Assembly: GCF_056712565.1 (NCBI RefSeq)
Contig: NZ_CM160072.1
Reading direction: 5' to 3' (one strand)
DNA: 64,000 bases
The notes under the pieces are model-generated. The model saw only the letters and a program-made list of their open reading frames with translations, had not been told where the DNA came from and did no database searches. The position numbers and the translations under genes were made by a program. Shown here piece by piece: positions 34,543-35,916 of this stretch; positions within the stretch are counted from its first letter, which is position 1, and every line of letters begins with the position of its first letter.

Positions 34543-35916
34543 ATGGATGCTAACAATATGAAAAGAAAAATTATTCCCGTGCTAATCGGTTGTACGCTCT
34601 CTTTCTCTGCCCTGGCGGCACAACCTACGGCTGAGCGCTATGTCGTCAGTTTTCCAGAAGGCACGCACGTGAACTACGCCGGCGCATTTGCCAGTGCATT
34701 CCCGAACGGCCTTCCGGTTGGGATAGGTTCTGGCCTGCTGTTCACCGGTAAACAGGGCGATGCCCTGACATTCGCAACCATTACCGATCGCGGTCCGAAC
34801 GCGGATTCACCGAAAGAGGGGAAAAACGAAACTAAAATTTTCGTTACGCCAGATTTCGCGCCGCTGCTGATGACGATTCGTGTACAAAACGGCAAAGCGG
34901 AGGCCATCGATCCCCGTCCTCTGCATGACGATAAAGGCGCGATCAACGGTCTGCCGCTGGCAAGCGACGTGATTGGCTCCACCAATGAAGTGGCCTTCAG
35001 CGACACGTTACATAGACTGAAGGGGGATAATCGCGGGCTGGATACGGAAGGGATCACTCCGGATGGTAAAGGAGGTTACTGGCTGTGCGATGAGTATGGC
35101 CCGTTCCTGATTAACATCGACAGTAAAGGGAAAATCCTGGCAATCCACGGTCCGCAGGCGGCGGAAGGGGAAAAAGCGATTGCGGGCGGTTTGCCAAATA
35201 TCCTCAAATGGCGTCAGGCGAACCGCGGCTTTGAAGGCCTCACCCGTATGCCGGACGGGCGTATTATTGTCGCCGTGCAAAGTACGCTGGATATCGACGC
35301 TAAGAGCAAGAAAAAGGCGCTGTTTACGCGTCTGGTGAGCTTCGATCCGGCAAGCGGAAAAACCGCGATGTACGGTTATCCTATCGACAGCGCGGCCTAC
35401 AGCAAAAACAGCGACGCTAAAATCGGAGACATCGTGGCGCTCGATAACCAGCACATCCTGCTGATCGAACAGGGAAGAGATAAAAACAACAGAATGCGTA
35501 ACCTGATTTACGAGGTCGATCTCAATAAGGCGAGCGACCTGTCAGGCTTCGACAAGCCGGGTGAGTATCCGGAGTTTGATGATGAGAAAACCCTGTCACA
35601 GCGCGGCATTACCCTTGCGCAGAAAACGCAGGTTGTTGATCTGCGCTCCTTGGGCTGGCAGCAGGAGAAGGCTGAAGGGTTGGCGCTGATCGACAGCAAA
35701 ACGCTGGCGGTGGCGAACGATAACGACTTTGGCGTGAAGGTGGCGATGCAACATCCGGTCGAGGGCAAGACATTCAAGGATTATCGGGTGAACGCGGAAG
35801 GAAAGCTGACGCTTGACGACAAGCAGGTTGAAACGACCCTCAGAGTGAAGCCACTGGAGAAACCGGAGTCTGACAGTGAACTGTGGATTGTGACGCTGCC
35901 GGAAGCGTTGAAATAA
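34543..35916 (+). CDS. Secreted protein, putative phytase-like esterase family (function unknown)
   Basis: 457 aa; signal peptide MKRKIIPVLIGCTLSFSALAAQP; motifs NRGFEGL and ANDNDFG reminiscent of esterase-like phytase-family proteins (recollection). Confidence 0.55.
   Translation: MDANNMKRKIIPVLIGCTLSFSALAAQPTAERYVVSFPEGTHVNYAGAFASAFPNGLPVGIGSGLLFTGKQGDALTFATITDRGPNADSPKEGKNETKIFVTPDFAPLLMTIRVQNGKAEAIDPRPLHDDKGAINGLPLASDVIGSTNEVAFSDTLHRLKGDNRGLDTEGITPDGKGGYWLCDEYGPFLINIDSKGKILAIHGPQAAEGEKAIAGGLPNILKWRQANRGFEGLTRMPDGRIIVAVQSTLDIDAKSKKKALFTRLVSFDPASGKTAMYGYPIDSAAYSKNSDAKIGDIVALDNQHILLIEQGRDKNNRMRNLIYEVDLNKASDLSGFDKPGEYPEFDDEKTLSQRGITLAQKTQVVDLRSLGWQQEKAEGLALIDSKTLAVANDNDFGVKVAMQHPVEGKTFKDYRVNAEGKLTLDDKQVETTLRVKPLEKPESDSELWIVTLPEALK

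Follow-up and report, generated by a model that had tools for sequence, protein, structure and literature searches.

What does an E. coli of the extraintestinal type carry in a gene for an exported, phytase-like protein that lies amid insertion-sequence debris on a tRNA island, where did the gene come from, and which signal would switch it on? The locus was analysed in a window of 64,000 nucleotides, by which the whole stretch of DNA under analysis is meant, and this window corresponds to the leuX region in the chromosome of an E. coli of the ExPEC/APEC type. The island attachment tRNA, tRNA-Leu(CAA) or leuX, is located at 6832..6916 on the + strand (ARAGORN and annotation) and is followed by an annotated integrase gene at 7159-8367; KpLE2-type genes and fecIRABCDE are annotated in the window as well. 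A sequence-only reading had placed the gene between IS3 and IS66 remnants, upstream of a CP4-type module, and the annotation agrees with this description. On the 5′ side, the remnant of an IS3-family transposase gene (34145..34276, − strand; RefSeq annotation, identical DNA) is accompanied by a second remnant of the IS5/IS1182 family (33932..34062, − strand; RefSeq annotation). On the 3′ side, an IS66-family tnpC remnant that is devoid of its N-terminus is found at 36155..37144 on the − strand (RefSeq annotation and ORF), and between it and the gene, about 200 bp past the stop codon, the sequence GTAAGCGTACAGCGAGGGCCGTA at 36118..36140 is a terminal repeat which we take to be an IS66-type end. 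Beyond the IS66 remnant follow, in this order, alpA, yfjI, a GTPase gene, Ag43 and the CP4-type genes. A tRNA with an integrase gene, IS remnants on both sides and the foreign origin described below characterise the gene as cargo of the tRNA island. No convincing terminator was found 3′ of its stop codon.

The open reading frame extends on the + strand over 34543..35916 and encodes 457 aa when counted from the first ATG, the length assumed in the sequence-only reading, whereas the RefSeq/PGAP annotation (34558..35916, WP_000823243.1, an identical protein) starts 15 nt further 3′ and yields 452 aa. For the analysis of the start codon the window was aligned with the native loci of E. hormaechei, [Enterobacter] lignolyticus and Pantoea. 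At the position of the first ATG (34543), E. hormaechei has CTG and [Enterobacter] lignolyticus has AAG. In contrast, GGAYGCTAACAATATG with the Shine-Dalgarno-like GGATG (34545..34549, + strand; GGAYG in the four loci) located 8 nt 5′ of the ATG at 34558 is kept in 4/4 aligned loci. Due to the missing conservation of the first ATG and the conservation of GGAYGCTAACAATATG and GGATG, the second ATG at 34558 is most likely the true start, and the 457-aa start was dropped while the reading frame itself stands.

The gene, which is backed by its ORF, Pfam, RefSeq, start-codon conservation and AlphaFold, is real and intact; it belongs to an E. coli island, had been annotated before and has a G+C content of 54%. 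Its product is a member of PF13449. The family guess of the sequence-only reading was thereby confirmed: the PF13449 "Phytase-like" profile is matched with E = 4.6e-43 and 148.6 bits (cut-off 27.6) over positions 4-284 of 284, this profile was the sole Pfam match at E <= 1 and no second, unrelated family appeared, and no model matched the protein in the NCBIfam search. With this E-value and more than 1700 homologues the ORF is far beyond chance. In a set of 71 homologues with 29-89% identity, the E. coli protein retains the consensus residue at 49 of the 49 positions that are conserved to at least 85%. The near-invariant polar residues are mostly acidic, supplemented by two Arg and one Lys, and the near-invariant positions comprise D77, R78, N81, D162, E164, E179, Y180, N222, E226, R258, Y274, D291, E304, E339, K371, E373, D388 and D390. 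Full-length similarity was also found to PHROG 9280, a PHROG without known function. In phage genomes a tblastn search gave no match to the gene, and PADLOC reported no defence family at E <= 0.01.

By inspection, the N-terminus (MKRKIIPVLIGCTLSFSALA followed by AQP) shows the parts expected of a Sec-type (signal peptidase I) signal peptide of residues 1-20 (34558..34617, + strand), namely a basic n-region, a hydrophobic core and an A-x-A site. It consists of MKRK and 16 mostly hydrophobic residues ending in A-L-A before the next A, with the predicted cut in front of AQP. The LAA at this predicted site is conserved in 15 orthologues, with A20 and A21 being invariant, and in the AlphaFold model residues 1-20 are helical with low pLDDT while the confident domain starts at about residue 24. 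The mature protein would have 432 aa, with a computed mass of 46.9 kDa and a computed pI of 5.4. Anchoring as a lipoprotein via a lipobox LIGC was rejected, as 6 of the 15 orthologues have T, S or A in place of Cys12 and the A-x-A site is conserved. The protein had been called secreted; in E. coli the Sec signal predicts a periplasmic location, and in this sense export stands, but release from the cell is not implied.

The gene was horizontally acquired. A block at 34403..35919 is homologous to the native locus of the Enterobacter cloacae complex (blastn, 83.7% nt identity); it comprises the gene and about 155 bp on its 5′ side and stops at the stop codon, with nothing downstream. The upstream piece of about 155-158 bp travels with the gene in 2262/2262 carrier genomes. 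Orthologues with 64-89% identity are chromosomal in the Enterobacter cloacae complex, Pluralibacter, Scandinavium, Pantoea, Serratia, Yersinia and Cronobacter, where they are always monocistronic and have neighbours that differ between genera. Operon partners or a conserved neighbourhood were found in none of Enterobacter, [Enterobacter] lignolyticus, Pantoea, Serratia, Cronobacter, Yersinia and two metagenomic loci, and phosphate genes were absent from the genomic neighbourhoods of native orthologues that were examined, which speaks against the Pho-regulon enzyme proposed below. Within E. coli, 2261 of 5426 complete genomes (about 42%) carry the gene at >= 99% identity and 58% are without it. 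It is usually present in a single copy per genome, lies on plasmids in 66 places among the complete E. coli genomes, and was found in PLSDB on 64 Escherichia or Salmonella plasmids, the copy of pSF10EC-2 being situated between IS1 copies. The family has entered E. coli more than once, given that two further alleles are present, one with 71% identity and one that is Enterobacter-like.

The view of the gene as stand-alone cargo, put forward from the window sequence, did not hold. Of about 2260 E. coli genomes with the gene, at least 1477 have a contiguous stretch from fecI via IS1 to the gene, and ST131 has a shorter version; the gene thus belongs to a recurrent segment that is linked to fec and riddled with IS elements, and is not free-standing. 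The same arrangement is known from the Shigella flexneri SRL island, which carries fec and in which IS66 genes follow orf34, an open reading frame first described as "putative periplasmic protein" and in a re-annotation assigned to the phytase-like family with 99.78% (PMC6980539). From the name, the percentage given in that paper and the shared context we infer that the window gene is SRL orf34. As an object the gene is thus already known, with an identical RefSeq protein, a family in Pfam and an entry in the catalogue of the SRL island.

What was carried along with the gene is a possible promoter. A CTGTCAT-type direct repeat with 11-bp periodicity is common to the DNA kept 5′ of the gene and to the corresponding regions of the orthologues, and 10 nt 3′ of the repeat a TAnnnT-type hexamer is located in 8/8 upstream regions read (TATAAC in Cronobacter). 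Such a repeat followed after 10 nt by a −10 element is the layout of PhoB-activated promoters, e.g. those of phoA and pstS, in which the box replaces the −35 element. The sites were scored using the Pho-box consensus and the −10 rule of E. coli PhoB promoters. The core scored 14/14 in Cronobacter (CTGTCATTAATCTGTCAC), Serratia (TTGTCATCAAATTGTCAT) and Yersinia (TTGTCATTGCATTGTCAT), 12/14 in Pantoea (ATATCATTTTACTGTCAT), E. hormaechei (ATGTCATTTTTCTGACAC) and a 44%-identical metagenomic homologue, L015 (CCGACATATATCTGTCAC), and 11/14 in [Enterobacter] lignolyticus (ACGTCATTTTCCTGACAC) and in the window (ATGTCATTTTCCTGACTC, 34490-34507). In the loci measured, the Pho-box-like sites are found 45-58 nt 5′ of the ATG. 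In the window the putative box is the repeat ATGTCAT-TTTC-CTGACTC on the + strand, at a position homologous to that in the orthologues, and the candidate −10 hexamer TATGGT (34518..34523, + strand) lies 10 nt past it, its position being derived from this spacing. A consensus scan upstream of the gene found no sigma-70 −35/−10 promoter, as would be expected for a promoter that depends on an activator such as PhoB.

Sites of this quality are rare in the background. Only 9 of 335,044 positions outside the focal sites reached at least 12/14, whereas a site this good lies within 120 nt 5′ of the start in 6 of 8 orthologues, and in 5/6 orthologue loci the site is unique at its own score within 13-17 kb on both strands. 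The upstream DNA of Serratia/Yersinia, of Cronobacter and of L015 is unalignable, and their sites therefore count as independent support; the sites of Enterobacter, Pantoea and E. coli are homologous and consequently represent one lineage. The distant homologues L014 and L016, the latter high in GC, have weak Pho-box-like matches only, which are uninformative. A Pho-box-like architecture is conserved in the upstream regions of the enterobacterial orthologues, and such a putative conserved Pho-box promoter may be new, as no prior statement of it was found in the searchable literature. Control by PhoB would be the corresponding reading, in a weaker form for the E. coli copy. In comparison with all orthologues the window box has a degraded second half-site (TGACT versus TGTCA), and taken alone it is not significant, with 55 window sites scoring equally well or better. 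With a score of 11/14 and this half-site, the E. coli copy may respond poorly or never to PhoB.

These features of the E. coli copy have to be considered together with the possibility that the gene is an idle passenger brought in with fec and IS elements, poorly expressed, of no measurable effect and intact through its recent arrival, which would be compatible with any biochemistry of the protein. The identity among all E. coli copies is at least 99%, which points to a recent spread and permits no test of selection. The position amid IS debris, the degraded half-site, the missing terminator and native downstream DNA and the many complete genomes without the gene (about 58%) would all suit a passenger, as would the truncated variants that are common in sequence databases, e.g. 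a 352-aa form with 439 member sequences. However, the full-length ORF is present in 2190 E. coli genomes, every family-conserved residue is kept, all carriers have the native promoter region, and the acquisition was repeated, as seen from the 71%-identical and the Enterobacter-like alleles. On balance we regard an idle passenger as somewhat unlikely.

Outside the enterobacteria, induction of related proteins under phosphorus limitation has been described. A protein with a phytase-like domain is among the strongest P-limitation-induced proteins of Nodularia (PMC9846622), the same class (phytase-like or "esterase-like activity of phytase") is strongly induced by P limitation in Synechococcus WH8102 (PMC11020310), and in the diatom Phaeodactylum the secreted PtPhos2 is up 7.4 log2-fold under P limitation (PMC7283521). 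Domain fusions point in the same direction: in a sample of 20 multidomain homologues, fusion with 5′-nucleotidase/metallophosphoesterase domains was seen in three and with a ParB-like nuclease domain in one, and others have choice-of-anchor I, SLH or T9SS sorting domains; the names of the large multidomain homologues consist of choice-of-anchor I and SLH labels only. The literature search turned up no functional or biochemical study of this gene or of other PF13449 proteins, and no published data on phoB-dependent induction of the gene at low phosphate or on binding of PhoB~P.

The AlphaFold model (pLDDT 96, pTM 0.92) is all-beta, and according to this model the protein is a single-domain beta-propeller. 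The structural search gave as matches the C-terminal domain of E. coli YjiK (3qqz, score 19.4), two bacterial glutaminyl cyclases (3mbr, 18.8, and 3nok, 17.2) and the human Ca2+-activated nucleotidase (2h2n, 15.4); beta-propeller phytase and PhoX were both absent from the top 60 matches. Foldseek against the PDB returned generic propellers with TM <= 0.36 only. By sequence, no solved homologue was found with the single sequence, and with a profile only weak matches to NHL/Pizza, Drp35 and YjiK repeats were obtained. YjiK (PF06977, SdiA-regulated), itself a protein without known function, covers about half of the 432-residue mature protein, in comparison with which the island protein has large insertions and a C-terminal extension. 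To SCAN-1, the nucleotidase of the apyrase family represented by 2h2n, the identity is 12%, and a relationship at the sequence level was not detected. Of the best structural matches, YjiK has no known function and the glutaminyl cyclases are not phosphatases, and this speaks against a phosphohydrolase.

A propeller of this kind could accordingly have no role in phosphate-ester chemistry and could act in binding, as a structural protein or as an enzyme of the cyclase, lyase or lactonase type, induced under phosphorus starvation for the remodelling of the envelope or another purpose. The nature of its closest structural neighbours would permit this, but the pattern of invariant acidic and basic residues, the fusions with 5′-nucleotidase, metallophosphoesterase and nuclease domains and the induction by P limitation in three distant phyla argue in the other direction, and we consider a role apart from phosphate esters unlikely.

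The name phytase, given by Pfam and used in the sequence-only reading, is correct as a label, but the protein belongs to no established phytase class. It has no Pfam match to the beta-propeller phytases (PF02333), and no solved beta-propeller phytase is among the top 60 structural matches; the histidine acid phosphatases of the AppA type were rejected as RHGXRXP is missing and PF00328 is unmatched, and the cysteine (PTP-like) phytases as there is no CX5R, the sole Cys residues being C12 in the signal peptide and C177. A metallophosphoesterase domain was likewise not found in the protein by Pfam. Since no established phytase class is matched, "phytase" is to be read as a family label only. With the beta-propeller phytases of Bacillus (PhyC/TS-Phy) the protein nevertheless has in common that it is an exported beta-propeller rich in conserved acidic residues and that a link to phosphate starvation is plausible. 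A genuine Ca2+-dependent propeller phytase that frees phosphate from phytate in the intestine of hosts on a grain diet, e.g. poultry and humans, would explain the frequency of the gene in avian and extraintestinal E. coli, and the Pfam and NCBI names, the fold with its many invariant acidic residues, the isolation of many carrier strains from chickens and a Pho-box control suited to phosphate scavenging would be in line with it. A Pantoea brenneri strain without the gene was, however, still isolated as a phytate hydrolyser (PMC12697123), which counts against phytate as the substrate. We regard a genuine phytase as quite improbable.

PhoX and Psip1, alkaline phosphatases that depend on Ca/Fe, are exported propeller enzymes that are turned on under phosphate starvation and follow the same regulatory logic as proposed here (PMC11098088). 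By analogy, the island protein would probably work like PhoX/Psip1 or like the Ca2+-dependent nucleotidase SCAN-1 while standing outside both families. The papers on PhoA-aty and Psip1 do not tie those enzymes to PF13449 (PMC11098088 for Psip1).

The explanation that we prefer, with a probability of roughly 0.5, is that the gene encodes a Sec-exported periplasmic hydrolase of organophosphates (esters or anhydrides) that belongs to the Pho regulon, and that gene and promoter were jointly acquired from an Enterobacter-like donor. The donor would have been an enterobacterium related to the Enterobacter cloacae complex, which gave the gene and about 155 bp of promoter region to E. coli, where it would now move within a segment full of IS elements, usually together with the fec iron-citrate genes. 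Natively, the gene would be a monocistronic member of the Pho regulon, turned on under scarce phosphate by phosphorylated PhoB bound to a Pho box at the −35 position. The periplasmic protein would most likely hydrolyse an organic phosphate ester or anhydride, presumably by means of the cluster of invariant Asp/Glu/Arg/Lys residues and probably with Ca2+, and the released phosphate could then be taken up by Pst. Phosphohydrolase chemistry, dependence on a metal and export to the periplasm are thus suggested by residue pattern, comparison and signal peptide, and phytate is only one candidate substrate. A wider reading, in which PF13449 comprises unrecognised PhoB-controlled, Sec-exported propeller phosphohydrolases distinct from PhoA, PhoD, PhoX, Psip1, PafA and the four phytase classes, one of which was acquired with its Pho promoter by many pathogenic E. 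coli, is put forward tentatively as a possibility that we hold to be less probable.

As an object, the gene is ordinary, an accessory gene that about 42% of the complete E. coli genomes carry. A database name is not equivalent to phytase activity, and this should be borne in mind, e.g. in genome papers in which the gene is counted as a phytase. The Pho-box promoter of the orthologues provides a concrete hypothesis, namely induction by PhoB and scavenging of organic phosphate, for a large uncharacterised family of more than 2000 sequence clusters, whose members range from enterobacteria to cyanobacteria and diatoms. If this hypothesis is true, fec and a Pho-controlled enzyme on one mobile segment would constitute a combined module for the scavenging of iron plus phosphorus, and the E. 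coli gene would offer an easy genetic system for the first activity of a PF13449 member.

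In the window, fecIRABCDE (24255-31800) has IS elements on either side, and the number of complete E. coli genomes in which it is contiguous with the phytase-like gene (segment 31279-35916) is at least 1477. A likewise paired arrangement of fec and the phytase-like gene is described for the Shigella SRL island (PMC6980539). These two nutrient-uptake functions seem to move together as one IS-bounded segment. The transposase gene of the IS1 element adjoining fecI (32092-32789) is interrupted by an internal stop.

A short way upstream of the phytase-like gene lies a small gene of the YmgB/AriR family of biofilm and acid-resistance regulators (33514-33807, plus strand; RefSeq start at 33550 in HS13-1), which stands alone in a patch of 36% G+C with IS3 and IS5 remnants on either side and had no match among the PHROGs. 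The ST131 version of the segment is covered to 75% and appears to be without part of this stretch. On the other side, approximately 200 bp separate the stop codon of the phytase-like gene from the IS66-type terminal repeat (35917-36117); this interval contains a short hairpin (GGGGT...ACCCC) without a T-run, and it matched neither the Enterobacter locus nor annotated features.

Downstream of the CP4-type module and before yjhU, genes for a methylthioribose kinase (mtnK), an isomerase (mtnA), a fuculose-phosphate-type aldolase and a GRP sugar transporter are located at 37018-41182 of the locus of the nearly identical strain ST95-32, approximately 50017-54181 of the window. Together they look like a salvage cassette for 5-deoxy/5-methylthio-pentoses, and unlike the present island K-12 carries no cluster of this type before yjhU. 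Within the CP4-type module, the gene for the Ag43 autotransporter (29647-32766 of the ST95-32 locus, approximately 42646-45765 of the window) is annotated in ST95-32 as a pseudogene with an internal stop. A BCCT-family transporter gene (19200-21197), flanked by copies of IS911, IS600 and ISEc52, is present in the window but missing from strain ST95-32.

The phytase-like protein (34558-35913) was matched over its full length by PHROG 9280 (E = 7e-243), a family with unannotated function, whereas a tblastn search of 50,697 deposited phage genomes with the protein returned zero copies. The source of PHROG 9280 is presumably a predicted prophage that took in the island of this gene.

[Enterobacter] lignolyticus (9530-10106 of its locus) and E. 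hormaechei (3308-3884) each have a BrnT/BrnA toxin-antitoxin pair in the neighbourhood of the orthologue, close to the yjiA-yjiX-cstA genes. This is a hint that the native site, too, may be variable.

Near-identical shortened versions of the phytase-like protein are numerous in public data (P0072, P0081 and P0121-P0131), P0072 being 352 aa long with 439 member sequences; either frameshifted alleles or artefacts of contig ends could account for them. With P0078 (450 aa, 71% identity) and the Enterobacter-like P0303 (453 aa), both labelled E. coli, at least two more divergent alleles of this family occur among other strains of the species, which suggests that E. coli acquired it independently several times.
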